Assembly: GCA_964492745.1 (NCBI GenBank)
Contig: CAZBLT010000012.1
Location: 5,162 to 69,161 of the forward strand
DNA: 64,000 nucleotides
Source: an uncultured Anaerolineaceae bacterium
GTDB lineage: Bacteria > Chloroflexota > Anaerolineae > Anaerolineales > E44-bin32
Direction: 5' to 3'
A program made the translations under genes and the position numbers. Position 1 is the first letter of the stretch, and each line of letters opens with the position of its first letter. Below, piece by piece: positions 7,898 through 63,817 of the stretch. The notes beneath the pieces are model-generated. The model was not told where the DNA came from, did no database searches, and saw only the letters and a program-made list of their open reading frames with translations.

Positions 7898-10078
7898 TTA
7901 GCGCTGGTGCCAGCCGCCGGTACTAACGGGGCCAGCTTGCGAGGTTGGTTCCCTGGCCTGGGGCGGGAGCGGCGGCTTGGGGCAGAAGAGCCAGCCGGAG
8001 CAACGCCAGCGGGGGAACAGAGAAGGAAGCCGGGCGATGCGGGGCAGCCGTAGTCCATACGGAGGGCGCTCCTGGCAAGTCGCGCCGCTCAGGAGCGGTG
8101 GCTTGGGAAGAGTCTCTACGAACAGCCGGTTAGGGGCATAGGGGGTTGGCCACAATCCGTAGTATAGGCCGCCTGAACCATCGGGCAGGCGGCCAAACGA
8201 TAGGTTATAGGCCCGCACCCGTAGATACTGGATCTGGTCCACAACCCGGCCATCGGGCGCCAGGAGCCGGACGGTGTCGCCGGTATCATTCAGGGCGATG
8301 CGGGTGCGGGAGCGGAAGAAGACGGCGTAGCTTCCCGGGCGCAGGACGCGGGGAGGGAGTTCGTAAGGGGAGGAGCCACCTGCTTCGACATCGTCCAGGG
8401 CCCAGCCGCTCAGGTCAACAGCTCTCGGGCCGATGTTATAGAGCTCGATAAACTCGTCGCCGGTCGTGACGCCGCCCTTCCCCTCCCAGTCGTAGTGGGG
8501 CCGAATTAGAACCTCGTTGATGACGACCTTTCCCGGAAACCATGTCGGCACAGGTGTGGGGAAGTGGATCGAGTTGGGGCCTCCAGGCGTCCCCGGGATA
8601 GAATTTCCGGCCGTGTCGTGGCCGCGGCCACGATATTCGTTGAAGGTGGCCCAATTGCCGCCCCGATCCTCGCCGCCGCGCCGTTCCATGCTGGCCCGGG
8701 AGACGGGGTCCCCCGCAGGCCAGCCGCCACCATCTGCATTCGCCGTGTCCACAAGGGCTCCACGGGCATCACGAAGCTCGAGGCACTCCCCGCTGTTGCG
8801 GAGCGAGCCATGATAGATGAGATCGGCAGGGAGATCGGCGATTGTATGGTCGTCCGTGCGCTCGAGGAGGAAGAAGCCCCGTGCGGGAATTGTCCCCGTG
8901 AGCAGAATGTGCAGGTCGTCCCCGTCGCTCAGCGTCCAACCCTGAAGAGGGAGGGGCTCAGGCCCGGGGTTGTGCAGCTCGATCCATTCGTCGTTGGCGG
9001 AGGCCAGCGTCCCTGCCCAGGCCACCTCGTTGATCAGAACGGAGCGCGGCCGCACGGCCGTTGGCCGGGGGCTTGGCTGTGCAGAGGGCGGAGTGGGGGT
9101 GGAGGAGGGGGTGGGGCTGGCGCTGGGGCTGGGTGTGAACGTTCCTGTTGCGGAGGGAGTCGCCGCGACAGCGGTGGTGGGGGCTGGGGTGGGGTACCAG
9201 ATGGCGTTTGGCTGGCGGGGAGTACCCAGTATCGGATTGCCGCCCGCGTCGTGTCCATTGCCGCCGGTGCCAGGGAACGTGGCCCAATTTCCCGGCCGGT
9301 CGTCCCCGCCTCGTCGTTCCATGCTGGCTCTTGAGGAGGAATAGCCGGCGGGCCAGCCGCCGCCACCGGCATTGGCCGAATCGATGCGGTTCCCGACGGG
9401 GTCCAGGAGCAGGAGCGTCTCGCCGCCATTGCTCAAGCTTCCGGTGTAGATCTGATCGGCGGCGATATCCGCCACAGTCGTGTCATCGGTTCGCTCGAGC
9501 AAGAAGAATCCATAAGGGCCAAGGACACCTCCCAACGTGACCTGCAGGCCGCCGTCCTGGGATATGAGCCTCCACCCCTCGAGATGAATGCGCTCGGGCC
9601 CGGGATTGTGCAGTTCGATCCACTCGTCGTAGGCGGAGGCCAGCGTGCCAGCCCAGGCCACTTCGCTGATCAGAACCGACCCTGGTAGGACAGCCGTGGG
9701 GCGAGGGGAAGGCGCTGCCGGAGGGGTCGGCGTGGGCGTGGGCGTCGGGGTTCGAGATGGAGTTGGGGATGTGGTTTGCGTACCGGCTATGGTGGGTGTT
9801 GCGGTGAGAGATGGGGCTTGTGTCGATGCGGGTGGGGGACTGGGTGTTTGAGTCTCTGAAGCGGCGGGATAAGAGATCTCCGTGGCTGTTCCAGTTTCTG
9901 TCCAGGATGGCGCTTGTGTGGGGGTCTGGCTATGGTGGTGAGTGGGTGAAGGTGTCGCCTGAGCTTGCAAACGCGGGGCACCGGCGTCCCACATGCCGAT
10001 GGTGGCGAGGGATAGAATGAAGAACCCGGCAAACAGCGAAGGCCGTGCCGGGGCGTGGAGAGGACGTGGTTGGGCCAT
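7898..10078 (-). CDS. Secreted or anchored protein with three lamin-tail domains (LTD) and Pro/Thr/Ser linkers
   Basis: N-terminal hydrophobic segment SLFAGFFILSLATIGMW. Three LTD-like modules: VLISEVAWAGTLASAYDEWIELHNPG, VLINEVAWAGTLASANDEWIELHNPG and VVINEVLIRP...DEFIELYNIG. They are separated by PT-rich linkers. Confidence 0.8.
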   Translation of the reverse strand: MAQPRPLHAPARPSLFAGFFILSLATIGMWDAGAPRLQAQATPSPTHHHSQTPTQAPSWTETGTATEISYPAASETQTPSPPPASTQAPSLTATPTIAGTQTTSPTPSRTPTPTPTPTPPAAPSPRPTAVLPGSVLISEVAWAGTLASAYDEWIELHNPGPERIHLEGWRLISQDGGLQVTLGGVLGPYGFFLLERTDDTTVADIAADQIYTGSLSNGGETLLLLDPVGNRIDSANAGGGGWPAGYSSSRASMERRGGDDRPGNWATFPGTGGNGHDAGGNPILGTPRQPNAIWYPTPAPTTAVAATPSATGTFTPSPSASPTPSSTPTPPSAQPSPRPTAVRPRSVLINEVAWAGTLASANDEWIELHNPGPEPLPLQGWTLSDGDDLHILLTGTIPARGFFLLERTDDHTIADLPADLIYHGSLRNSGECLELRDARGALVDTANADGGGWPAGDPVSRASMERRGGEDRGGNWATFNEYRGRGHDTAGNSIPGTPGGPNSIHFPTPVPTWFPGKVVINEVLIRPHYDWEGKGGVTTGDEFIELYNIGPRAVDLSGWALDDVEAGGSSPYELPPRVLRPGSYAVFFRSRTRIALNDTGDTVRLLAPDGRVVDQIQYLRVRAYNLSFGRLPDGSGGLYYGLWPTPYAPNRLFVETLPKPPLLSGATCQERPPYGLRLPRIARLPSLFPRWRCSGWLFCPKPPLPPQAREPTSQAGPVSTGGWHQR

Positions 10079-51945: not shown

Positions 51946-52530
51946 GGCCGCTTCTTCGAAGTGTAGAGAGCCGATCAGGCGCCTGCGCGGCGATAGACTT
52001 CAAGATGGCTTAGCAGCATCAAGATGAATCCTGCCAGTGTCGTGAGCGAATAGATCGCGTATGGAGGGCGGGGGCTCCATCGAGTGGTGCCGATGTGCCA
52101 GAAAGCAACGAGCGTGGAGGAGATGATGATCAAAACGGTCGCAGCCCGGAGGGGGCGATGGGATGCGAGAGCAAATCCGGATCAGTGGGCCTGGATGGCC
52201 GGAGCGGCGCATGTCTTCGAAGCGCCATCCATGTCGTCAGCAACAGGGCCGGGAGCAGAAGAAACGCGGCGACATGGTGCGGCGCAGTCCCGAGAAGGAA
52301 CAATGACCGCCGCCAGGAATAGATAAGTCACGGCGGTGTAGTAACGTCAGGTCTCGATGAAGCATAGCGTCGAATCGGTCCCCGGAAGATGACTTCCGAG
52401 AAGAAGGCCAGCGAGCAGGAAGCTGCAAGTACGTGGATCCAGCTTCGGTGCATAGGTGTCGCGCATATCAGGGGTTGGTTCCTCATGAAGAGCCATCGAA
52501 TTTGCAGCAACAAAGTCGCGCCGGATCCTC

Positions 52531-53400
52531 TTAGGAGGGGTTTGTGTTCCCTTGCCGGCGGGGCGGGGTCCAAGCCAAGCCACGTCGGGGCGCAAACAGG
52601 AAGACCAGCAGGAAGATGCCTGTTTCGACCAAGACGATGGCCGGGCCAGAGGGCATGTTGAGGTAATAGGAGAGCAGCAGGCCCAGGAAGGAGGAAGTCG
52701 CGCCGATAAAGGCCGAGAGCACCATCATGGAGGGCAGGCGCCGGACAAGGAGGTACGCCGACGAGGCCGGTGTTACAAGCATAGCCAGCACTAAGGCCAC
52801 CCCAACGGCTTGGATCGAGATCACGATCACGAGGGCGAGCAACACCAGCAGCAGGTTTTCGAGCAGCCGCACAGGCAGGCGCAGGGTCTGGGCCAGCACA
52901 GGGTCGAACGACAGGACCAGGAATTCCTTGTAGAAGGCGAAGATTGTGAGGAGGACGAGCCCTCCCAGGCCTGCCATGAGCCATAGGTCGGCCGGCCCAA
53001 CGCCCAGTAAATTGCCGAAGAGGATATGAGCCAAGTCAACGGCGTAGCTGCCTTCGAGCGAAATCAGGGCCACGCCCAGGGCGAAGGAGCCGGCGAAGAC
53101 GATGCCCACGGCGGCATCCTCACGTATGCGGGCGCGGCGACTGATGGCACCAATGGCCAGCGCCGCAAGCACTCCCACGATGAGCGCACCTGCGGGAAGA
53201 GGCCAGCCAAGCAGGAAGGCAAGAACCACCCCCGGAAGAATGATGTGCGCCAGAGCGTCTCCGAAGAAAGCCAGGCCGCGGAGCACGACATAGGTGCCGA
53301 GCACAGGACAGACGGTTCCCATAAGCAACGCGGCCAGCAAACCCCGTTGCATGAAGGCATAGCCAAAGGGATCGGTCAGCCACGTTACCAACTCAGACAT
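52531..53400 (-). CDS. znuB: Metal (Zn/Mn) ABC transporter permease, ABC-3 family
   Basis: Start at MSELVTWLTDPFGYAFMQRGLLAALLMG. The ATG overlaps the znuC stop (ATGTCTGA). Typical ABC-3 pattern. Confidence 0.9.
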   Translation of the reverse strand: MSELVTWLTDPFGYAFMQRGLLAALLMGTVCPVLGTYVVLRGLAFFGDALAHIILPGVVLAFLLGWPLPAGALIVGVLAALAIGAISRRARIREDAAVGIVFAGSFALGVALISLEGSYAVDLAHILFGNLLGVGPADLWLMAGLGGLVLLTIFAFYKEFLVLSFDPVLAQTLRLPVRLLENLLLVLLALVIVISIQAVGVALVLAMLVTPASSAYLLVRRLPSMMVLSAFIGATSSFLGLLLSYYLNMPSGPAIVLVETGIFLLVFLFAPRRGLAWTPPRRQGNTNPS

Positions 53401-54220
53401 CCCGGGGCTGCTCCTCGCCGTCACAGCAGGTATCAGTCACCAGGAGGGCGCCCTCCTCATGGGAAAGTCTGTGGACTTGCGGTCCGTAGGCTTGCAGGAG
53501 GGTTTCCGAGGCCAGGACCGCGTCCGGCGAGCCGTAGGCGATGACGCGGCGGTTGAGCAGCAAAATGCGATCGAAGTGTTCTGCTGCCAGGCCAAGATCA
53601 TGGGTGGCGATGAGAATGGTGACTCCCAGGGCGCGCAGTTCTTGAAGAATCTGGAGAATGGCCGCCAAACTAGGTGCGTCCAGGCCGGTGAGCGGCTCAT
53701 CCAGCAGAATCACCTCCGCTTCCTGAGCCAGTGCCTGCGCTAGGAAGACGCGTTGCTGTTGCCCGCCGGAGAGCTCCCCGATCTGGCGTCCGGCTGCGTG
53801 GCGCATGCCCACACGGTCTAGGGCCTCACGCACGAATTGCCAATCCTTGGAGGTGGGCCAGCGGAAGAGACCGATCTTGCGGATGCGGCCCATCATCACC
53901 ACTTCATCGACGCTTACCGGAAAGTTCCAGTCGACCTGGCTGCGCTGCGGCACATAGGCGATGCACACATGGCCGCGAGGCCCATGGCCGAAGATCTCCA
54001 CCCGGCCTTCGGTCGGCTCAAGCGTGCCGGCGATGACCTGTATAAGAGTCGTTTTTCCCGCGCCGTTTGGCCCCACGATGGCCACCTGCTCGCCCGGCGG
54101 GATCTCGAGATGGATATCCTCCAAGGCGATCGTCCCCTCATGCCTTACCCAGACGTGCTCTAGCCTGATCGGCGGAGCGCTCACGTCGTGCTCATGGAAG
54201 CGTGCAGTCAGGCTGGCCAT
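53393..54220 (-). CDS. znuC: Metal ABC transporter ATP-binding protein
   Basis: Walker A GPNGAGKTT, signature LSGGQQQR, Walker B ILLDEP. Confidence 0.92.
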   Translation of the reverse strand: MASLTARFHEHDVSAPPIRLEHVWVRHEGTIALEDIHLEIPPGEQVAIVGPNGAGKTTLIQVIAGTLEPTEGRVEIFGHGPRGHVCIAYVPQRSQVDWNFPVSVDEVVMMGRIRKIGLFRWPTSKDWQFVREALDRVGMRHAAGRQIGELSGGQQQRVFLAQALAQEAEVILLDEPLTGLDAPSLAAILQILQELRALGVTILIATHDLGLAAEHFDRILLLNRRVIAYGSPDAVLASETLLQAYGPQVHRLSHEEGALLVTDTCCDGEEQPRDV

Positions 54221-54238
54221 AGATGGTCTCCGATGGGC

Positions 54239-55291
54239 TCAGGGGGCAAGGGCGCGGACGATGGCCTCGACATTGTACTGCATCATGGCAATGTAGCTGG
54301 GCGCCTCGCCCGATGGCGGAGTGAGCGTGCCAATGTAAAGCGGCACGACAGGCACGCCTACGTCCTGCGCCAGCCGGGCGGCAAGCCGCGGGTTGAGACT
54401 GCGCTCTACGAAAATGGCCGCCACGTCACGCTCACGGATGACTTCCTGGAGGATTCCGAGCGCCTGCGAGGAGGGCTCGGCGGCGGTGCTGTAGGCCGGG
54501 ATGACGGCGCCAACCATTTCAAAACCGTAGCGGTGTGCGAAATATCCCAGGGCGAGGTGATCAGCCACAAGCATGCGGCGCGCGGGAGGGATCTCTTCCA
54601 CTCGTTTTAGGATCCACTCATGCAGCTCCCGGAGCGCATTTTGGTATTCCTGAGCGCGCTGCCTGTAGGTTTCGGCGCGGACGGGATCCCGGCGGCTGAG
54701 TGCCTGCTGAGCGTTCTCGGTCCAGTGAATGACTTGGAGCGGATCGAGCCAGACGTGGGGGTCGAGATCAGCGTCGAGCAATTCATCCGGCGGGTGCTGT
54801 TCATCCGTTTGCATGGGCCAATCACGCGCATTGACTCCTTCCGACAGGGAGACGACAGGGATACCATCCAGTGAGAGTGTGGAGAGGGTGGACTCCAGCG
54901 GGGCCTCCAGGCCTAGACCGTTGATGAGGATCAGGTCGGCCTGGGTCAAGGCTTGCAGGTCTCCTGGCGTAGGTTGGTACGCGTGGGGATCGGCGCCCAA
55001 GGGTATCAACGGAGTCAATTCTATGTCCGAGCCGCCCACGTTGCGCACGACATCGGCGACGACATTGGTTGTGGCGACGACCTTCAGGCGACCGTTTGCG
55101 GGCAGCGGAGCGGGCTGGAGGGCATCGATAGGTGTGAGAAAGGCCTGCTCGTGTCCTCGAGATTTCGGGGCATTTGCACAGCCCCCCAACAATATAAAGG
55201 CGATCATCCATGCAAGGAAGATCGGCCTCGCCATGGCATGCAGGGGGCTGCCTGACTGGCGGATGACGGAGCTGCGCGAGGCTGCGGTCAT
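54239..55291 (-). CDS. znuA: Metal ABC transporter substrate-binding lipoprotein (ZnuA/TroA-like)
   Basis: Lipobox FILLGGC, DPHAYQPTP, DPHVWLDP. The ATG at 55291 overlaps the zur stop as ATGA; the alternative ATG is at 55234. The upstream part of the 460-aa track ORF is rejected because it overlaps zur. Confidence 0.85.
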   Translation of the reverse strand: MTAASRSSVIRQSGSPLHAMARPIFLAWMIAFILLGGCANAPKSRGHEQAFLTPIDALQPAPLPANGRLKVVATTNVVADVVRNVGGSDIELTPLIPLGADPHAYQPTPGDLQALTQADLILINGLGLEAPLESTLSTLSLDGIPVVSLSEGVNARDWPMQTDEQHPPDELLDADLDPHVWLDPLQVIHWTENAQQALSRRDPVRAETYRQRAQEYQNALRELHEWILKRVEEIPPARRMLVADHLALGYFAHRYGFEMVGAVIPAYSTAAEPSSQALGILQEVIRERDVAAIFVERSLNPRLAARLAQDVGVPVVPLYIGTLTPPSGEAPSYIAMMQYNVEAIVRALAP

Positions 55292-55749
55292 GATGCGCCC
55301 TCCTGGCAATTCGGGCAGAGCCCCTGGAATTCGAGCATATGCTCCTGGATGAGGAAGCCGGTCTCCCGCTGAATGCGCGCAACGAGGTCCTTCAGGTTCT
55401 CTGTGCCGGGGAACTCGACAACATACTGGCAGTTGCGGCATATGAGATGGTGTCCATGGGCGAGCAGTGTGCGCGCATAGCCGTGGCAGCCATCGGAGAG
55501 GTGCACGCGCCGCACGAACCCCAGCCGGGCGAAGAGATCGAGGGTTCGATAGACCGTCACCAGGCTCAGCGAAGGGCACAAGGGCCTGGCGTTTGCTAGC
55601 AGGTCTTCGGGCCGCTGCCAATCCTGGCTCTGAGCCAGGGCTTTGATGAGAGCCCGGCGTGTGCGGGTGAGGCGGGAGCCTTGCGCTCGTAGCCGCTGCA
55701 GTAACGCCTGCTCCCAGGCGGCGGCATTATTATTGATAATTTCTTTCAT
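55288..55749 (-). CDS. zur: Fur-family metalloregulator, probably Zur
   Basis: The wHTH includes VTVYRTLDLF. Metal sites HGHHLICRNC and CPNC are present. First gene of zur-znuA-znuC-znuB. Confidence 0.9.
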   Translation of the reverse strand: MKEIINNNAAAWEQALLQRLRAQGSRLTRTRRALIKALAQSQDWQRPEDLLANARPLCPSLSLVTVYRTLDLFARLGFVRRVHLSDGCHGYARTLLAHGHHLICRNCQYVVEFPGTENLKDLVARIQRETGFLIQEHMLEFQGLCPNCQEGAS

Positions 55750-55752
55750 TAT
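55726..55752. promoter_or_regulatory. Candidate Fur/Zur-box-like AT-rich inverted repeats overlapping the zur start codon
   Basis: CATTATTATTGATAATTTCTTTCATTATGG contains ATTAT-TG-ATAAT (55729-55740) and ATAAT-N7-ATTAT (55736-55752). The stretch is nearly pure A/T in a GC-rich genome. It includes TGATAAT, a Fur-box half-site. Confidence 0.3.
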
Positions 55753-56045: not shown

Positions 56046-56074
56046 TTGACAGTTGCCCCCTACCGGAGTACCAT
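56046..56074 (+). promoter_or_regulatory. Sigma-70-type promoter of the lacI-ABC operon
   Basis: TTGACA (56046-56051), 17-nt spacer, TACCAT (56069-56074). Confidence 0.55.
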
Positions 56075-56081
56075 GGATTTA

Positions 56082-56105
56082 CCTTTTGGAACCGGTTCCA
56101 AAAGG
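56082..56105. promoter_or_regulatory. Perfect 24-bp palindrome, LacI-family operator
   Basis: CCTTTTGGAACCGGTTCCAAAAGG has a TGGAAC-CG-GTTCCA core, central CG, as in LacI/GalR-type operators. It starts 8 nt after the -10 and ends 18 nt before the LacI-family ATG. Confidence 0.7.
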
Positions 56106-56123
56106 CCACAAAGGGTCGCCGGC

Positions 56124-57152
56124 ATGCCTACTACCATCCGTGATGTAGCGAGGGTCGCTGGCGTGGGATTGGGCACTGTCTCCCGCGTGATCAACAACAG
56201 CCCCCAGGTGAGCGAGTCCACGCGCCGGCGTGTCTTGGATGCTATCGAGGCCCTCGATTTCCATCCCAGCCCGATCGCCCGGCGTCTTTCCCTCGGCAAG
56301 ACCCTCACCATCGCGGCCGTCGCCCCTTTCTTCACCCGCCCCGCAACGGTCGAGCGCCTGCGGGGCGTCGAAATAGCCATCGCCGGCACCGAATATGATC
56401 TGATCGTCTTCAACGTCGAGTCGCCGGAACGGCGGTATGCCACCCTGCGCGAGGTGACCTGCAGCCAGCGTGTCGATGGTGCGCTGGTGATTTCTTTGCC
56501 GCCCAGTGAGCAAGAATTGGAGATTCTCCAGAGTTCTTCCGTGCCCGTCGTCCTGATCGATATCAATAGCCCCGAAGTGAACGGGTTTTCAAGGGTGGTG
56601 ATCGACGATGTCGCGGGAGGGCGCCTGGCCACAGAACACCTGATCGGGCTGGGCCATCGGCGCATTGGATACATCAGCGATTCTTTCGATGAGCCTTCCC
56701 TCTATACGGCCAGCCGCATGCGCTATCTGGGCTATCGAGAAGCATTGCGAAAAGCAGGCATCGTTCCCGCAGAGGCTTGGCATCGGCATGGAGCGCATGG
56801 TCGCTACGAGGCTGAGCAACTCGCGCTGCATATACTCAATCTGGGGGATCCACCTACCGCCATCTTTGCCGCCAGTGATACACAGGCCATAGGGGTGATG
56901 GAAGCTGCCCGCAAGATGGGCATGAATGTTCCGAGGGATCTCTCGGTGGTTGGCTACGATGATATCGAACTCGCGGAGCATATGGGTCTCACGACAATCA
57001 GACAGCCGCTTTTTGAATCCGGCGCCGAGGGCGTGCGCTTGCTCCTACAGGTAATTGCCGACCAGGCAGCTGCGCCGGAGACGATCCGGCTTCCAACGGA
57101 GCTGGTCAAGCGACGCACCACAGCACGCCCGCCAAACGGAGGTTCCCTTTGA
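56124..57152 (+). CDS. LacI-family transcriptional regulator
   Basis: Start at MPTTIRDVARVAGVGLGTVSRVINN (HTH_LacI), followed by a periplasmic-binding-protein-like sugar-binding core. Confidence 0.9.
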   Translation: MPTTIRDVARVAGVGLGTVSRVINNSPQVSESTRRRVLDAIEALDFHPSPIARRLSLGKTLTIAAVAPFFTRPATVERLRGVEIAIAGTEYDLIVFNVESPERRYATLREVTCSQRVDGALVISLPPSEQELEILQSSSVPVVLIDINSPEVNGFSRVVIDDVAGGRLATEHLIGLGHRRIGYISDSFDEPSLYTASRMRYLGYREALRKAGIVPAEAWHRHGAHGRYEAEQLALHILNLGDPPTAIFAASDTQAIGVMEAARKMGMNVPRDLSVVGYDDIELAEHMGLTTIRQPLFESGAEGVRLLLQVIADQAAAPETIRLPTELVKRRTTARPPNGGSL

Positions 57153-57347
57153 TGCGGCCGGATCGGCAATCGCAGGCCGCGGCTGAGCCTGTTCAAGTCC
57201 GTGTCGACAGAGCCATTCCAGGCTGGGCCGGATCCTGTTCGGCCTGGGAAGGAGGGAGATTTGCATTAGAGCAAGCCCCGCATCTTCCGTTCTTGAGAAG
57301 GGCGTCTTTCTGAGCCCCCAGTAATTCGCTGAGAAAGGAGTGAGGAG

Positions 57348-59867
57348 ATGATTAAGAAATCCTGGCTGATTGGATTGCTCCTGGTCGTGGCTATGCTGGC
57401 CTCTGCCTGTGGTGGGGCCACGCCTACGCCGGGCGAGGAACCTACCAAGCCCCCCGCGCCGGAAACCGAAGCCCCCATGGTGCCGGCCGAGATCGACTGC
57501 AGTGGCATCTCGCCTGGGGATCAACTCACGGTCATGTATCAATGGTCGGGGGCCGAGGAGGAGAAGATCAACGCCATCTTCAAGCCGTTCGTCGACGCTT
57601 GTGGCGTGGAGATCGTAGCCGAATCGACCCGCGATGCCGCCGTCCTGGATGCCAAGGTGAAGAGCACGCCTCCGGATCTGGTCTTCTGGCCGACTACAGC
57701 ACCCCTGACGCTGTATGGCGATATGCTCAAGGACCTTGGACAGCTAGGGGCCAGCGCGAGCAACTACGCTGATTTCTGGCTTGACCTCGGATCGACGGGT
57801 GGAAAGTGGCTGGCGGTGCCGGTGAAGGCCGATATCAAGTCCATCATCTGGTACAGCCCGGTGCAGTTCGAAGCTTTCGGCTATCAGGTGCCGGCGACCT
57901 TCGATGAGCTCGATGCGCTGGTTGAGCAGATGGTGGCCGACGGGAATGTGCCCTGGAGCATGGGCATGGAGAGCGGCCCGGCGACAGGCTGGACGGGGTC
58001 GGACTTCATCCAGGACCTGCTCTTGACCTTCGAGGGGCCGGAGTACGTGATGGGGCTGATCAATGGCGAGATTCCCTATGACGACGAAGGTGTGGTGAAG
58101 GCCTATGAGCAGTATGTGAAGTGGGCCTCGGACGGGAAGTACACCGTCGGCGGAGCGACGGGGACGGTGAACACCGGGTTCCTGGATGCGATCTATAAGG
58201 TGTTCTCGGATCCGCCGGAGGCGATGATGGTGAAGCAGTCCGGGTTTGCGGGTGGAGAGATCGTCAAGCAATATCCGGATCTGGAATACGGCGTGGACTT
58301 TGACTTCTTTGGGTTCCCTGGGGCGCAAGGCCTGCAGGGTGGCGCCGATTTCCTGATGGCCTTCGGCGATTCGCCCGCCGCTACTGCGATGGTTAAGTAC
58401 CTGACGAGCGAGGCTGGAGGCGCGGCGTGGGCCGAGGCAGGTTTCGACCTATCTCCGAACAAGGCTGCCCTCGGTCACTATCCCGACGAGCAGCTGGCGA
58501 AGAAGGCCGAGATCTTGGCCTCCGCCACCGGCTTCACGCCGGACCTGGGTGACACGATCCCGGCGCCGTTCGGCGAGGCGGAGTGGAAGGCCATCGTCGA
58601 TGCCGTGCAGGGTGCGGACATCCCCACCGTGCTGGCAGCGGCGGCCGCCGCGCAGCGCGAGGGGCTAGCTATGGCGCCCAAGATCGATTGCAAGGGAGCC
58701 TTGGCCGGCGATCAGCTGACGGTCGTTTACCAGTGGTCAGGGGCCGAGGAGGAGAAGATCAACGCCATCTTCAAGCCCTTGGTCGACGCCTGTGGCATCG
58801 AAATCGTGGCGGAATCGACCCGCGATGCCGCCGTGCTGGATACCAAGATGAAGAGCACGCCGCCAGACTTGATATTCTGGCCCACCACCGCGCCCTTGAC
58901 ACTCTACCCCGACCAGTTGGTAGCGCTTGATCAAGTGGGCGGCGTGGCCGCCAACTACCCCGCCTTCTGGCTTGACCTCGGATCGACGGGTGGAAAGTGG
59001 CTGGCGGTGCCGGTGAAGGCCGATATCAAGTCCATCATCTGGTACAGCCCGGTGCAGTTCGAAGCTTTCGGCTATCAGGTGCCGGCGACCTTCGATGAGC
59101 TCGATGCGCTGGTTGAGCAGATGGTGGCCGACGGGAATGTGCCCTGGAGCATGGGCATGGAGAGCGGCCCGGCGACAGGCTGGACGGGGTCGGACTTCAT
59201 CCAGGACCTGCTCTTGACCTTCGAGGGGCCGGAGTACGTGATGGGGCTGATCAATGGCGAGATTCCCTATGACGACGAAGGTGTGGTGAAGGCCTATGAG
59301 CAGTATGTGAAGTGGGCCTCGGACGGGAAGTACACCGTCGGCGGAGCGACGGGGACGGTGAACACCGGGTTCCTGGATGCGATCTATAAGGTGTTCTCGG
59401 ATCCGCCGGAGGCGATGATGGTGAAGCAGTCCGGGTTTGCGGGTGGAGAGATCGTCAAGCAATATCCGGATCTGGAATACGGCGTGGACTTTGACTTCTT
59501 TGGGTTCCCTGGGGCGCAAGGCCTGCAGGGTGGCGCCGATTTCCTGATGGCCTTCGGCGATTCGCCCGCCGCTACTGCGATGGTTAAGTACCTGACGAGC
59601 GAGGCTGGAGGCGCGGCGTGGGCCGAGGCAGGTTTCGACCTATCTCCGAACAAGGCTGCCCTCGGTCACTATCCCGACGAGCAGCTGGCGAAGAAGGCCG
59701 AGATCTTGGCCTCCGCCACCGGCTTCACGCCGGACCTGGGTGACACGATCCCGGCGCCGTTCGGCGAGGCGGAGTGGAAGGCCATCGTCGATGCCGTGCA
59801 GGGTGCGGACATCCCCACCGTGCTGGCAGCGGCGGCTAGTGCGCAGAGCGAAGCTCTTGGCCGATAA
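57348..59867 (+). CDS. ABC transporter solute-binding lipoprotein with two tandem family-1 SBP modules in one ORF
   Basis: Lipobox LLVVAMLASAC. Module 1 is about residues 49-445 and module 2 about residues 446-839, with a period of 1191 nt. GGAG-rich RBS AAAGGAGTGAGGAG upstream. Confidence 0.85.
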   Translation: MIKKSWLIGLLLVVAMLASACGGATPTPGEEPTKPPAPETEAPMVPAEIDCSGISPGDQLTVMYQWSGAEEEKINAIFKPFVDACGVEIVAESTRDAAVLDAKVKSTPPDLVFWPTTAPLTLYGDMLKDLGQLGASASNYADFWLDLGSTGGKWLAVPVKADIKSIIWYSPVQFEAFGYQVPATFDELDALVEQMVADGNVPWSMGMESGPATGWTGSDFIQDLLLTFEGPEYVMGLINGEIPYDDEGVVKAYEQYVKWASDGKYTVGGATGTVNTGFLDAIYKVFSDPPEAMMVKQSGFAGGEIVKQYPDLEYGVDFDFFGFPGAQGLQGGADFLMAFGDSPAATAMVKYLTSEAGGAAWAEAGFDLSPNKAALGHYPDEQLAKKAEILASATGFTPDLGDTIPAPFGEAEWKAIVDAVQGADIPTVLAAAAAAQREGLAMAPKIDCKGALAGDQLTVVYQWSGAEEEKINAIFKPLVDACGIEIVAESTRDAAVLDTKMKSTPPDLIFWPTTAPLTLYPDQLVALDQVGGVAANYPAFWLDLGSTGGKWLAVPVKADIKSIIWYSPVQFEAFGYQVPATFDELDALVEQMVADGNVPWSMGMESGPATGWTGSDFIQDLLLTFEGPEYVMGLINGEIPYDDEGVVKAYEQYVKWASDGKYTVGGATGTVNTGFLDAIYKVFSDPPEAMMVKQSGFAGGEIVKQYPDLEYGVDFDFFGFPGAQGLQGGADFLMAFGDSPAATAMVKYLTSEAGGAAWAEAGFDLSPNKAALGHYPDEQLAKKAEILASATGFTPDLGDTIPAPFGEAEWKAIVDAVQGADIPTVLAAAASAQSEALGR
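57774..58645 (+). repeat. Direct repeat copy 1 (872 nt, identical to 58965-59836)
   Basis: Line-by-line comparison found no mismatch at an offset of 1191 nt. Antisense track ORFs 58193..58462 and 59384..59653 translate identically. Confidence 0.95.
58965..59836 (+). repeat. Direct repeat copy 2 (872 nt, identical to 57774-58645)
   Basis: As for copy 1. Identity ends at 58646 (C) versus 59837 (T). Confidence 0.95.
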
Positions 59868-59878
59868 TCCCGAACCTT

Positions 59879-59914
59879 GCTTGTGGGGTGCCCTGCATCT
59901 GGCACCCCACAAGC
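59879..59914 (+). promoter_or_regulatory. Intercistronic 14-bp stem-loop between the SBP and permease genes
   Basis: GCTTGTGGGGTGCC-CTGCATCT-GGCACCCCACAAGC is a perfect stem with no U-tract. It lies 12 nt after the SBP stop and 33 nt before the permease ATG. Confidence 0.6.
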
Positions 59915-59946
59915 ATCATCTGGACCCATACGCGTAAGGAGGTGCC

Positions 59947-60861
59947 ATGGCTGCCCCTAAGATCATGCAGCAGGGGCGCGTCGTGCCCTGGCTCTACCTG
60001 CTTCCAGCGCTGATTGTTATCGCCGTCTTCATCCTTTATCCCACGGCTAATACCTTCCAACTGAGTTTGCGCGACCGCACCGGAAGCCAACCTGCCAATG
60101 TGGAATGCATCGAGGGCGAGCCCTGCTGGGGCCCGTTCGAGAACTATCGCTACACACTCACATCCCCGGAAATGCTGACCGCCTTGCGCAACAACGCATT
60201 GTGGATCTTGGTCATGGTACCGATCACCATCGGCATAGGACTGGTGATCGCTGTGCTCGCCGACCGGGTGCGCTATGAAAGCCTGGTGAAATCCATCATC
60301 TTCATGCCCATGGCCATTTCGTTCATAGGGGCGGGCGTCATATGGCGCTTCATGTATCACATCGAAACAGGGAGCCTCGAGCAGATCGGCGTACTCAATG
60401 CCATCCTGGTCGGGCTCGGACTGGATCCCGTGCCGTGGCTGAGCACGGCCTGGGTGAACAACTTCGCACTCATGGCCGTGGGAGTTTGGCTGTGGGCCGG
60501 CTTCTGCATGACGATTCTATCGGCGGCGCTCAAAGGTCTTCCCTCGGAAGTCATCGAGGCTGCTCGGGTGGACGGGGCCACAGAGTGGCAACTCTTCTGG
60601 CAGGTGATGATGCCGATGATCTTGCCTACCGTCACGGTTGTGCTGACGACGATGATCATCATCATCCTGAAGATCTTCGATATTGTCTTCGTGATGACGG
60701 GCGGCTTGTTTGGAACGGAAGTGATCGCAAACCGCATGTTCAAACTCATCGTCACCCATACTGGCAGGTCGACGGCCATTGCCATGTTGCTGCTGGTGCT
60801 GACCATCCCGGTGATGGTGTTCAATGTGCGGCGGTTCCGAGAGCAGGAGGCCATGCGATGA
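59947..60861 (+). CDS. Carbohydrate ABC transporter permease (MalF/UgpA-like)
   Basis: Six TM helices, with the EAA-loop region EAARVDGATEWQLFWQVMMP. Confidence 0.9.
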   Translation: MAAPKIMQQGRVVPWLYLLPALIVIAVFILYPTANTFQLSLRDRTGSQPANVECIEGEPCWGPFENYRYTLTSPEMLTALRNNALWILVMVPITIGIGLVIAVLADRVRYESLVKSIIFMPMAISFIGAGVIWRFMYHIETGSLEQIGVLNAILVGLGLDPVPWLSTAWVNNFALMAVGVWLWAGFCMTILSAALKGLPSEVIEAARVDGATEWQLFWQVMMPMILPTVTVVLTTMIIIILKIFDIVFVMTGGLFGTEVIANRMFKLIVTHTGRSTAIAMLLLVLTIPVMVFNVRRFREQEAMR

Positions 60862-62078
60862 GACCCTTCGCACGCCTCAACCGCCTGTTTTCGCGTTTGC
60901 CTGTCCATCTCTCGCTTGGGGTACTCGTGCTGCTGTGGATTGTCCCCACTCTGGGGGTCTTCGTGACCTCCTTCCGGTCCCGAGAGGCAGTGCGCACTAC
61001 GGGTTGGTGGACGGTCTTTCTTCCACAGGAGGTGGAGGGGAAGGTCGAATATGCCACGTATTGCGAAGGCTGCCATGGGGCGGACGGCGCAGGCGTACCG
61101 GCCGCCGATCTGAGCGATCCGGCGGTGGTGAAGAAGTTCCCGCGTTCCAACCGTTTATTGGCAGTATTGCGCCGTCCTCTGGAGAGTGGAGAGTTGCATG
61201 TGCAAGAGCCAGGGCTGCCTGAGGATCCAAACAAGGCGCTGGAGACTCTGGCGCCCATCTTGGGCTATATGCAAGTGCTCTCTGGCATCGAGGAGAGAAC
61301 TGCTGGCCGTCTGACACTGCGGAACTATGCCGATGCTCTGGTCGGCTACAAAGGCACGCAGGATTACCTAACCGATTGTGAGCAGGGAGTGGCCAGTGCG
61401 CTGGCGAAGTTCAATTGCGATGCTAGCGACCTGCTACGGCCCGAAGGTATGGGCCGGGCCTTCCTAAACACGGTGGCTGTGGCGATTCCATCGGCGCTGC
61501 TTCCGATTCTAATCGCCGGCTTCGGTGCCTATGCCTTCGCCTGGATGGATTTCCCAGCGCGCCAATGGCTCTTTGCCATCCTTGTAGGCCTGCAAATCAT
61601 CCCGCTGCAATTGGCATTGGTGCCCATCGCACGCATGTACACTTCCGTGGGCCTGCAATCCACATTCTTGGGAATCTGGTTGTTCCATACAGGGTTTGGC
61701 CTTCCCTATGCCATCTATCTGATGCGCAACTTCCTTGGCGGGCTCCCGCGCGAGATCTTTGAATCGGTCTATATCGATGGAGCCAACCATTGGACAGCGT
61801 TCTGGCGATTGGCGATTCCACTTTCCGTCCCGGCGATCGCCTCCCTAGGAATCTTTCAATTCTTGTGGATTTGGAACGACTTCCTGGTGGCGAAGATCTT
61901 CCTATCCAGCCACCCTGTGCTGACGGTTCAGATCACCAATCTCATTGATCCGCGAGGGGCCAACTGGCATATTTTGACGGGCGCAGCTTTCTTGTCGTTC
62001 ATTGTTCCCATGGCAGTCTTCTTCGGCCTGCAGCGCTTCTTTGTGCGCGGTTTGCTGGCCGGATCCGTCAAGGGCTAG
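60858..62078 (+). CDS. Carbohydrate ABC transporter permease (MalG-like) with a cytochrome c-like insertion in the first external loop
   Basis: The ATG overlaps the upstream stop (ATGA at 60858-60861). The EAA loop is ESVYIDGANHWTAFWRLAIP. The loop after TM1 is about 150 aa and contains YCEGCHGADGAG (CXXCH at 61062-61076). The upstream part of the 578-aa track ORF is out-of-frame overlap with the previous permease. Confidence 0.85.
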   Translation: MRPFARLNRLFSRLPVHLSLGVLVLLWIVPTLGVFVTSFRSREAVRTTGWWTVFLPQEVEGKVEYATYCEGCHGADGAGVPAADLSDPAVVKKFPRSNRLLAVLRRPLESGELHVQEPGLPEDPNKALETLAPILGYMQVLSGIEERTAGRLTLRNYADALVGYKGTQDYLTDCEQGVASALAKFNCDASDLLRPEGMGRAFLNTVAVAIPSALLPILIAGFGAYAFAWMDFPARQWLFAILVGLQIIPLQLALVPIARMYTSVGLQSTFLGIWLFHTGFGLPYAIYLMRNFLGGLPREIFESVYIDGANHWTAFWRLAIPLSVPAIASLGIFQFLWIWNDFLVAKIFLSSHPVLTVQITNLIDPRGANWHILTGAAFLSFIVPMAVFFGLQRFFVRGLLAGSVKG

Positions 62079-62156: not shown

Positions 62157-63326
62157 CTAGGGCACCGGCGTGACGGTCGCCAGGTAGTCCCCCTGCAACC
62201 AGCCCTCGAGGACCTCCCCGAAGCCGTTGATAAAGCGCACGTACCACCAGACAGAGCCATCGATCTTGGTGGGTCCTTTGAGCACCACGACCCGGTCACC
62301 CTCCTCCAGGAACCCTACGTGGGCGCCGAGGGGGTCGGGGGTGACACGCAGCACGGCGCCGATGCCGCCGGTGCGCAGCACCTCGGCTGGCTGCGGAGTG
62401 GCCGTGGGGGTTTGGGTCGGGGTGGACGTGATCGTGGGCGTGTGAGTGGGCGTTGCCGTGGGGGTCATGGTAGCCGTGTGTGTGGGCGTGGATGTAGCCG
62501 TGGGTGTAGGCGTGGCGGTGGGCGGGGGTGTAGGTGTGGGCAATGAAGCCAGCACAGAGGCCCCCAGTCCTGCAGCGCTGAGCACCGCCACGACGCCCAT
62601 TAACGCCACGGCGGCGGCTAGCGAGCCAGTGGCACCGGTGAGAGGGCGGAATCCCAGGCCGGCGAGCACACCCACACCCACGACTAGTGCCCAGGCCAGG
62701 TGCAATCCGAAGGTGAGCAGGGCACCTTCCCAGAGCTCGGGCTCGCCAACCAACAGACCGATGGCGGCCGCGCCCAAGGGCAATGCCAGTTCGTATGCCA
62801 CGGCCGCGCTGGGCAGCGGCGCTAGCACTTCATCGCGCACCAGCTTGTAGGCCAGGAACCCCGCCCCCACCATCACCATGCCGAAATCGAGCCAATTGAG
62901 CTTGGTATGGCCCAGGGCCAGCAGGTAGGGCGCATCCCCGGCCCCCAGCCCGCCGCTCAGGCCGGCGGTCACGCCCAGGAGCAGCATGGCGGCCAGGAAA
63001 GCGGCCGTCATGCGGCCGAAGAAGCGCGCCGAGCCGGAGACGGCCGAGAGCGCCAGGCCCATCAGCGGACCCATGCGCGGCGCCAGCAATGCGCCGGCGA
63101 CCAGCAAAGCCCGCTGGTCAAAGCGGAATCCTAGTCCGATCAATGCGCCGGCTAGGAGCGCGTAGAAGAACAACTCCACGCCGGGGGTTACGATCTTGGC
63201 CAGCTCTTCGAGAAAGGCCTCGCGTTCATCGGCCCGCAGCTGGGTGAGCATGCGCAGGGCACGCCGACGGCGGGCTCTGGAGGCCTGACCGAGGGGATCG
63301 AAGGGTTCGCTGGATTGCGCGCTCAT
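62157..63326 (-). CDS. DUF389-like membrane protein fused through a Pro/Thr linker to a C-terminal SH3b-like domain
   Basis: Start at MSAQSSEP (the ATG overlaps the upstream stop as ATGA at 63323-63326). ELFFYALLAGALIGLGFRFDQRALLVAGALLAPRMGPLMG is DUF389-like. Then the linker PTPTPPPTATPTPTATSTPTHT..., then the SH3b-like GAVLRVTPDPLGAHVGFLEEGDRVVVL...WWYV. Confidence 0.7.
   Translation of the reverse strand: MSAQSSEPFDPLGQASRARRRRALRMLTQLRADEREAFLEELAKIVTPGVELFFYALLAGALIGLGFRFDQRALLVAGALLAPRMGPLMGLALSAVSGSARFFGRMTAAFLAAMLLLGVTAGLSGGLGAGDAPYLLALGHTKLNWLDFGMVMVGAGFLAYKLVRDEVLAPLPSAAVAYELALPLGAAAIGLLVGEPELWEGALLTFGLHLAWALVVGVGVLAGLGFRPLTGATGSLAAAVALMGVVAVLSAAGLGASVLASLPTPTPPPTATPTPTATSTPTHTATMTPTATPTHTPTITSTPTQTPTATPQPAEVLRTGGIGAVLRVTPDPLGAHVGFLEEGDRVVVLKGPTKIDGSVWWYVRFINGFGEVLEGWLQGDYLATVTPVP
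62396..62543 (-). repeat. Low-complexity GTGGG(C/T)GT-type repeats encoding the Pro/Thr linker
   Basis: The plus strand shows reiterated GTGGGCGTG/GTAGGTGTG units. They are in frame within the CDS and translate to (T/P)-rich sequence. Confidence 0.8.
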
Positions 63327-63793
63327 CGTCGTAGAGTGGCCACCAATCGGAGCGGATTTTCGAGCAAGTCTAGCGCGGCGTGGATGTTTTCGACAACGAG
63401 ATCGGCCGCCTGCAAGGTCTCTACCGCCAGTCCCTCCTTCGAGAGCAGGGCGATGCCGATCGCCGCCTCCCGGAGCATGCCGGCGTCGTTGGCGCCCTGT
63501 CCGATGGCGACAACCTGGTCGGCGCCCAGGGCACGGACCTGCGCGGCCTTGGCCTCGGCTTCCCCGCCGCGCGAAATGAGGGTAGCCTGGATGCCCAGCC
63601 GGGTCTCGATCGCCTGGCGGGTGCGATGCGTGTCGGCAGTCAGCAGGTGGAGCTCCAACCGGTCGCGCAATGCTGCAAGCGCCCTGGCCACCCCGTCGAT
63701 CAGGCGTCCGTCCAGAGCGATGGTGCCATGCACATCGCAGACCAAGTGCCGCAACTGAATGGTGCCCCGGCCGGGTACGTTGAGCTCGATCAA
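63323..63793 (-). CDS. HAD-superfamily protein resembling the soluble P-type ATPase family (COG4087)
   Basis: (M)IELNVPGRGTIQLRHLVCDVHGTIALDG (motif I), LLTADT, K in AEAKAAQV, GQGANDAGML (motif IV). I prefer the TTG start at 63793, with GGAGGG 6 nt upstream. The track ORF extends to 63934. Confidence 0.7.
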   Translation of the reverse strand: MIELNVPGRGTIQLRHLVCDVHGTIALDGRLIDGVARALAALRDRLELHLLTADTHRTRQAIETRLGIQATLISRGGEAEAKAAQVRALGADQVVAIGQGANDAGMLREAAIGIALLSKEGLAVETLQAADLVVENIHAALDLLENPLRLVATLRR

Positions 63794-63817
63794 GGCTGCC
63801 CTCCACAGGTTGCCGGC

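Follow-up and report, generated by a model that had tools for sequence, protein, structure and literature searches.

Probable recurrent gene conversion between the two modules of a tandem sugar-type binding lipoprotein of Chloroflexota

The window analyzed in this study is a 64,000-nucleotide (nt) stretch of DNA from an uncultured Anaerolineaceae bacterium (GenBank assembly GCA_964492745.1, contig CAZBLT010000012.1, positions 5,162 to 69,161), and it harbors, at positions 57348 to 59867 of its forward strand, an open reading frame (ORF) of 839 amino acids (aa) whose product is a substrate-binding lipoprotein composed of two tandem modules. A tract of 872 nt, approximately three quarters of each module, is identical, base for base, between these modules and adjoins a segment in which they have diverged extensively. 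We consider it very probable that the gene encodes an old tandem binding protein whose modules have undergone recurrent intragenic gene conversion.

The gene, all features of which are located on the forward strand, commences with an ATG codon directly preceded by an AGGAG ribosome-binding site (approximately positions 57336 to 57343), and its assignment (839 aa plus stop) is supported by the ORF, the ribosome-binding site, homologues, and an AlphaFold2 (AF2) model. The N terminus of the lipoprotein, MIKKSWLIGLLLVVAMLASAC, is predicted, on direct reading, to comprise a signal peptide and lipobox (LASAC; positions 57348 to 57410), the predicted lipidated cysteine of which, Cys21 (codon 57408 to 57410), is invariant across 71 aligned homologues (alignment A1). 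A flexible Pro/Thr/Glu-rich tether (positions 57411 to 57491) connects the lipid anchor to module 1, and residues 21 to 45 display a predicted local distance difference test score (pLDDT) below 50. Modules 1 and 2 begin with IDCSG at position 57492 and IDCKG at position 58683, respectively, corresponding to a period of 1191 nt. Base-by-base comparison at this offset revealed that the longest exact run spans 872 nt, with copy 1 (module residues 95 to 385) at positions 57774 to 58645 and copy 2 at positions 58965 to 59836. The probability of such a run arising by chance is approximately 1e-110 at the per-site identity of 0.75 observed in the flanking N-segments, and it represents the sole long repeat in the window; a weaker direct repeat (positions 8931 to 9082 and 9567 to 9718; 152 nt, 78% identical, 636 nt apart) was also observed elsewhere.

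The N-segments (module residues 1 to 94), located at positions 57492 to 57773 in module 1 and 58683 to 58964 in module 2, are not homogenized, as 211 of their 282 nt (75%) are identical, and that of module 2 carries module-2-specific residues which are common to the relatives P0001 and P0002. The most diverged stretch between the modules, termed HV1 (hypervariable; module residues 73 to 94), is located at positions 57708 to 57773 in module 1 and 58899 to 58964 in module 2, and abuts the 5′ edge of the tract. A second such region, HV2, lies within the repeat, at positions 58362 to 58511 in copy 1 and 59553 to 59702 in copy 2. At the 3′ edge of the tract, the end of module 1 and the short inter-module linker of approximately 10 residues (…QREGLAMAPK; positions 58646 to 58682) continue without a stop codon into module 2, which in turn terminates in its own specific C-terminal tail (…SAQSEALGR) and a TAA stop codon (positions 59837 to 59867, with the stop at 59865 to 59867). 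The original prediction, which was made from the sequence of the window, had described the 839-aa ORF, the module starts, the 1191-nt period, and the identical tract, and every one of its coordinates proved correct; its estimate that about one residue in five differs across the first 282 nt of each module likewise agrees with the 77.9% identity determined here for the first 95 residues.

The two parts of each module differ markedly in age. Between the N-segments, synonymous divergence (dS) amounts to 1.17 and nonsynonymous divergence (dN) to 0.16, while 42 of the 71 mismatches are located at third codon positions and no adenine bias is apparent. Immediately alongside these 282 nt, the tract contains no mismatch in 872 nt, synonymous sites included. 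The N-segment divergence is, therefore, old and has accumulated under purifying selection, while the adjoining 872-nt tract is young; because the unconverted segment has reached saturated synonymous divergence, the duplication itself is old, and only the identical tract is recent. For HV1, dN between modules is 0.44 to 0.52, as opposed to 0.17 to 0.18 between the orthologous modules of the window and its relative L082 (dS approximately 1.7). The low value between orthologues at such a high dS indicates that the HV1 of each module is conserved for its position.

The two-module architecture is widespread among relatives. From 5.8 billion proteins, about 80 clusters of full-length two-module proteins (830 to 870 aa) were retrieved, ranging from 95% down to 46% identity, and those with a source name were labeled as proteins of Chloroflexota or Anaerolineales metagenome-assembled genomes (MAGs). 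Among GTDB species representatives, 171 loci with relatives were identified, of which 80 were retained, and 22 of these, from Chloroflexota MAGs, contained an intact two-module ORF. Among the 22, the complete 6.4-Mb chromosome OZ252150.1 (locus L017) carries a two-module gene whose modules are 75 to 81% identical at the nucleotide level, while a 1.3-Mb contig (L041) carries one with a 1165-nt repeat at 98.4% identity between modules. Single-module relatives of 460 to 500 aa are common in the same bacteria and are interleaved with two-module proteins when ordered by identity. The suggestion that this architecture is uncommon holds in general but not within Chloroflexota, given the about 80 clusters. 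The linker motif QR(E/A/D)(G/S)LA(L/M)AP, located directly before IDC, is common to about 20 relatives, and the junction is in frame everywhere. The two-module fusion is, in summary, old and common to a Chloroflexota (Anaerolineae-like) clade which shares the same linker and module-specific signature residues. The possibility that the modules represent two genes separated by a stop codon and a ribosome-binding site is ruled out by the conservation of the in-frame junction (...QREGLAMAPK-IDC...) in many independent assemblies.

When clustered at 50%, the wider family comprises 224 representatives (E ≤ 1e-30), among which a few distant members of about 900 aa (31 to 32% identical) also possess two SBP_bac_1 domains. 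Other combinations were observed in this family. The more distant relatives P0124, P0125, P0156, P0227, and P0246 are Ser/Thr kinases, caspase-domain proteins, and a STAND NTPase in which a module of this family makes up the C-terminal region, and these fusions are probably sugar-sensing signaling proteins. P0092, P0096, P0098, and P0099 (658 to 720 aa) combine one module (approximately 70% identical) with a Phosphonate-bd/NMT1-type domain (PF12974, PF09084) and are mixed tandem fusions of two unrelated types of binding protein.

Comparison of modules within and between these proteins points to homogenization in many lineages. Identity between the modules of one protein ranges from 70% to 99.7%, whereas between proteins of different lineages it often amounts to no more than 60 to 75%. 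Exact inter-module runs of 883 to 1176 nt are present in 12 of the 22 two-module loci and modules at 65 to 82% nucleotide identity in 8, while in the remaining 2 an exact core is bordered by mismatches on either side. This spread of module identity across lineages, from about 65% to about 100%, is indicative of concerted evolution. Module trees were constructed for 20 proteins that share the linker of the window protein; as these involve short segments (50 to 100 residues) and simple neighbor joining, they are read for the contrast in label parsimony only and not for single branches. Trees of the N-segment (residues 1 to 94) and of residues 291 to 340 required 9 and 8 module-label changes, respectively, compared with a shuffled mean of 13.7, while the tree of the core (residues 95 to 290) required 14 to 15, which is no better than random. 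Furthermore, in 8 to 10 of the 20 cases the two modules of one protein were mutual nearest neighbors across the core. Among these clade members, the signal of module position is retained in the N-segment and HV2 and is lost in the core.

The closest relatives of the window gene, which derive from other samples, are L081 (95% protein identity) and L082 (88%), and both display the same mosaic, with exact self-repeats of 825 nt from gene position 451 in L081 and 865 nt from position 422 in L082, while that of the window begins at position 427. A further mosaic, L083, in which the perfect run begins a little later, was found on contig Ga0190360_1000066 when a metagenome was scanned for a 30-mer of the repeat. 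The differences between the repeats of the window and L081 occur in both modules and are clustered within approximately 160 nt (gene positions 1009 to 1170 and the partner region). In this HV2 patch, dS is 0.95 and dN is 0.23, which corresponds to the level between paralogues, as opposed to a dS of 0.10 across the rest of the repeat. The type of HV2 can be recognized from a motif, NKW(A)xGKY, including Trp325, which is present in module 2 but not in module 1 of 16 unconverted relatives, the reverse never being seen. Both modules of the window protein possess a module-1-type HV2, with no Trp at module position 325 in copy 2, and all eight of its nearest neighbors are module-1 sequences. In P0001, P0002, and P0004, on the other hand, both modules possess a module-2-type HV2, and for P0001 and P0002 all eight nearest neighbors are module-2 sequences. 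As the window carries the module-1 type twice and its close relatives, the two closest included, the module-2 type twice, homogenization must have run in opposite directions.

A recent event is suggested by two near-identical strains. L083 and L081 are 99.69% identical over 8768 nt, and 11 of their 27 differences are confined to a 56-nt stretch at the 5′ tract edge in module 2, where L083 retains module-2-specific bases (FWMDLGSVGGEW) and where L081 and the window read as module 1. This edge looks like a short recent conversion tract for which module 1 served as the donor. Another localized difference was noted at the start of the gene, where the window (57348 to 57437) and L081 (6001 to 6090) have 21 differences in the first 90 nt, encoding the signal peptide, as opposed to 6 in the next 270 nt; this sharply bounded, divergent patch is perhaps an imported segment.

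The mechanism that we infer is one in which homologous recombination between the modules overwrote codons 95 to 385 of one module with those of the other. The 872 identical nucleotides would have arisen either through non-reciprocal gene conversion or through a cycle of unequal exchange between sister strands with the same outcome. HV1, being located at the 5′ edge of the tract, probably stops the extension of heteroduplex and is also kept different by selection, while the 3′ limit of the tract would be set by the end of homology, where the linker of module 1 faces the C-terminal tail of module 2. Across the family, homogenization is recurrent and has proceeded in both directions. The resulting protein would hold its two binding sites close to the translocator on a single tether, and in the window these sites would differ only in the N-lobe segment (first 94 residues); as with the substrate considered below, any functional difference between the modules is one that we infer. 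The original prediction had offered gene conversion or unequal crossing-over as the source of the repeat, a proposal which is supported by the combination of an old flank and a young tract, the differing phylogenetic affinities of the tract and its flanks, the opposite directions of homogenization, and the strain-level edge.

Several points nonetheless weigh against this interpretation. The exact identity of 872/872 is an upper bound, as an assembler that walks a loop will print identical copies even if the real ones differ. Among relatives whose contig names reveal the assembler, the perfect repeats of more than 880 nt occur in SPAdes-style contigs, and the examples on long contigs reach only 98.4 to 98.9%. 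Strict gene conversion is, moreover, indistinguishable from expansion and contraction by unequal exchange. As regards function, the substrate assignment rests on structural relatives which are approximately 20% identical, with Pfam and NCBIfam scores below their thresholds.

Homogenization through cycles of unequal crossing-over (from two modules to three and back, or between one and two), rather than through strict gene conversion, is unlikely, albeit well short of negligible. Exact direct repeats 1191 nt apart represent good substrates for such exchange, and deletion between them would leave an in-frame single-module protein of 442 aa, similar to the common single-module relatives whose interleaving with two-module proteins has been described above; short-read assemblies could, in addition, hide extra copies. 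However, no three-module protein of approximately 1230 aa was found among the 120 best matches, the N-segments and linker remain position specific, and the 44-nt edge shift between near-identical strains resembles a short conversion tract. The absence of three-module proteins from these matches, the stable linker, and the short edge shift lead us to lean toward conversion, although some single-module relatives may well have arisen by deletion between the repeats, given the in-frame 442-aa product.

Over-homogenization during assembly appears improbable. According to this scenario, two real modules with a very similar core were collapsed and a bubble (for example, at HV2) was popped, such that the true module 2 may still possess a module-2-type HV2. 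Exact repeats that are longer than the reads require contigs to traverse a collapsed loop twice, and the distribution of perfect repeats across assemblies is in keeping with this, since they are borne by the SPAdes-style NODE contigs referred to above, with two further loci under other names, all modules on MEGAHIT-style contigs are diverged, the gene is cut off at the end of some contigs, and the contigs that display 98.4 to 98.9% rather than 100% identity are those likely to derive from long reads. The exact window protein is also absent from a large public collection, which therefore offers no second assembly of the strain. Nevertheless, collapse requires near-identity in the first instance, so that most of the tract must be truly homogenized, and L041, on its 1.3-Mb contig, is without inter-module mismatch in the HV2 region. 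The same mosaic is, furthermore, present in the assemblies of three relatives (L081, L082, and L083), and the assembly path that contains the shifted edge between L081 and L083 is unique, so that repeat collapse cannot have created it. The assembly artefact considered in the original prediction cannot account for the two-module structure, but it could exaggerate the perfection of the identity.

That the entire two-module structure is a mis-join of a single-module gene is scarcely credible: although single-module relatives of 460 to 500 aa are common in the same bacteria, about 20 relatives, originating from different studies, possess the same in-frame junction and linker motif, a complete chromosome and megabase contigs also carry the two-module gene, and both N-segments are conserved with their counterparts in L081 and L082. 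Equally little can be said for a young tandem duplication whose first 282 nt diverged rapidly through positive selection or targeted mutagenesis, since the richness of HV1 in amino acid changes (dN about 0.5) is countered by the near-saturated synonymous divergence of the N-segments, the third-position mismatches without adenine bias, and the conservation of the module-1 and module-2 versions of HV1 between the window and L082 despite a dS of about 1.7. A diversity-generating retroelement was also considered and is ruled out by the lack of adenine bias and by the location of mismatches mostly at third codon positions.

No Pfam SBP_bac_1/8 model and no NCBIfam equivalog matched the lipoprotein above threshold; the best Pfam match, SBP_bac_11, scored 20.3 bits (cut-off 25), and weak NCBIfam matches were obtained to NgcE (48 bits; cut-off 400) and GlcS (41 bits; cut-off 500), while some homologues carry precomputed PF01547 or PF13416 matches. 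Judged by sequence, the lipoprotein is a divergent branch and not an equivalog of any named protein. The structure of the protein was also predicted, as had been suggested in the original prediction. The AF2 model, based on 71 homologues, has a mean pLDDT of 88.6, with a disordered tether at residues 21 to 45 and both modules fully folded, each displaying the two-lobed fold of periplasmic binding proteins. The predicted template modeling score is 0.64, which suggests that the modules do not adopt one fixed orientation toward each other. Foldseek matched each module to single-module sugar binders, namely AcbH (galactose) and the glucose-binding proteins TtGBP and ppGBP at a probability of 1.0, as well as further glucose binders, with TM-scores of up to 0.81 on the target, while no PDB chain covered more than approximately 40% of the model. 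The same relatives were the best matches in PDB sequence searches (E value of 8e-12, or 5e-15 with a profile). Each module is thereby predicted to be a complete sugar-type binding-protein fold. On the basis of these fold matches and of the LacI regulator and permease genes in its neighborhood, the lipoprotein is predicted to be the CUT1-like binding component of a sugar ATP-binding cassette (ABC) importer. Its substrate is probably a glucose- or galactose-like sugar, by analogy with these structural relatives.

Concerted evolution by gene conversion is known for tufA/tufB, rRNA operons, and the repeats of surface proteins, and the gene described here resembles these systems in its identical tract with diverged flanks, its identity at synonymous sites, and its lineage-specific homogenization. 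It differs from cases of the tufA/tufB type in that conversion takes place within one reading frame, between halves that each encode a whole binding module, and in that the variable stretches on the flanks are refractory to conversion, position by position, across the clade. Each module shares its fold with AcbH (3OO6-3OOA), the Thermus thermophilus glucose/galactose-binding protein (2B3B), Pseudomonas putida ppGBP (5DVF), and GlcS, yet all of these solved relatives are single-module proteins and are approximately 20% identical. Literature searches, covering part of the literature, returned nothing relevant on free tandem solute-binding proteins or on gene conversion in binding proteins, and neither a paper nor a solved structure was found for a free two-module sugar-type lipoprotein. 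Thus, while concerted evolution by conversion is well known, the architecture of a free, two-module sugar-type lipoprotein is undescribed as far as we found.

Tandem binding domains have so far been studied almost exclusively in amino acid importers, in which they are fused to the membrane subunit. The two tandem binding domains of GlnPQ have distinct specificities and affinities, and they dock in competition with each other (PMC8025302). The present system is similar to GlnPQ-type importers of Lactococcus lactis and other Gram-positive bacteria in that two tandem domains are contained in one chain near a type I ABC translocator, and the unconverted two-module relatives identified here also keep module-specific residues. 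The GlnPQ domains are, however, small amino acid binders which are covalently fused to the membrane domain, whereas here modules of approximately 395 aa and of sugar type are encoded by a separate lipoprotein gene; nor is concerted evolution described in PMC8025302. By analogy, two tethered sites near the translocator could raise the capture rate or widen specificity.

It may be speculated, with little confidence, that HV1 and HV2 are specificity loops of the sugar pocket and that conversion acts as a natural cassette swap. If so, strains would move between having two different sites, as in the 16 unconverted relatives, and having two alike sites of either kind, and closely related strains would differ in uptake. 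The two-module family in any case represents a natural series for the study of intragenic concerted evolution, extending from fully diverged through partly converted to fully identical modules, with conversion in both directions and shifted tract edges in near-identical strains. Genes of this kind also break or mislead short-read assemblies, and caution is, therefore, warranted with the copy identity and copy number reported in MAGs.

The binding-protein gene is located within an apparently conserved cluster. Upstream lies a gene for a LacI-family regulator (positions 56046 to 57152, forward strand; Pfam LacI, Peripla_BP_1, and Peripla_BP_3), the ORF of which starts with TTG at position 56046, although the true start is probably the ATG at position 56124, which would yield a 342-aa product; this gene is also located 5′ of the binding-protein gene in L081 and L082 (342 and 339 aa, respectively). 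Downstream, and likewise on the forward strand, are two ABC permease genes with Pfam BPD_transp_1 domains, encoding permease 1 (positions 59947 to 60861; 304 aa), which is also the next gene in L081 and L082, and permease 2 (positions 60858 to 62078; 406 aa). The order of regulator, binding protein, 304-aa permease, and 406-aa permease is alike in the window, L081, and L082, and no ATPase gene is adjacent to the operon. The 79-nt gap between the stop codon of the binding-protein gene and permease 1 contains a stable hairpin (positions 59878 to 59915, forward strand) with a 15-bp stem and no T-run (minimum free energy of -39.9 kcal/mol; z = -4.5). A hairpin is retained in L081 and, with a different sequence, in L082; this element may stabilize the upstream message or dampen read-through, by analogy with other binding-protein operons. 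Scans for promoters and terminators returned sites that were no more numerous than in shuffled sequence, and an Rfam scan of the window detected one tRNA and nothing else.

Permease 2 harbors an outward-facing loop of approximately 170 residues (approximately positions 60966 to 61472) after its first membrane helix. The loop contains a CxxCH sequence (positions 61062 to 61076) within an invariant Y..YC..CHG..G, a motif of the heme c type, together with a further invariant His and two additional invariant Cys residues. Of 78 homologous operons, 74 encode CxxCH, both among those with a single binding module and among those with two. A loop profile matches c-type cytochromes in the PDB, including CcoP (3mk7_C; E value of 8e-6), cytochrome c6, and others. 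In the literature search, no cytochrome-c-like insert was found to be described for any sugar ABC permease.

Beyond this cluster, a Fur-family regulator and a ZnuA/ABC ATPase/ABC-3 permease metal-uptake operon are located on the reverse strand (positions 52500 to 55750), 5′ of the LacI gene, as in L081, an arrangement which is ordinary. On the other side, an ORF for a DUF389-type membrane protein (positions 62157 to 63806, reverse strand) encodes a long Pro/Thr-rich repeat (…TPTPTATSTPTHTATMTPTATPTHTPT…) followed by a C-terminal domain, and the homologous gene call in L081 is shorter, at 389 aa.

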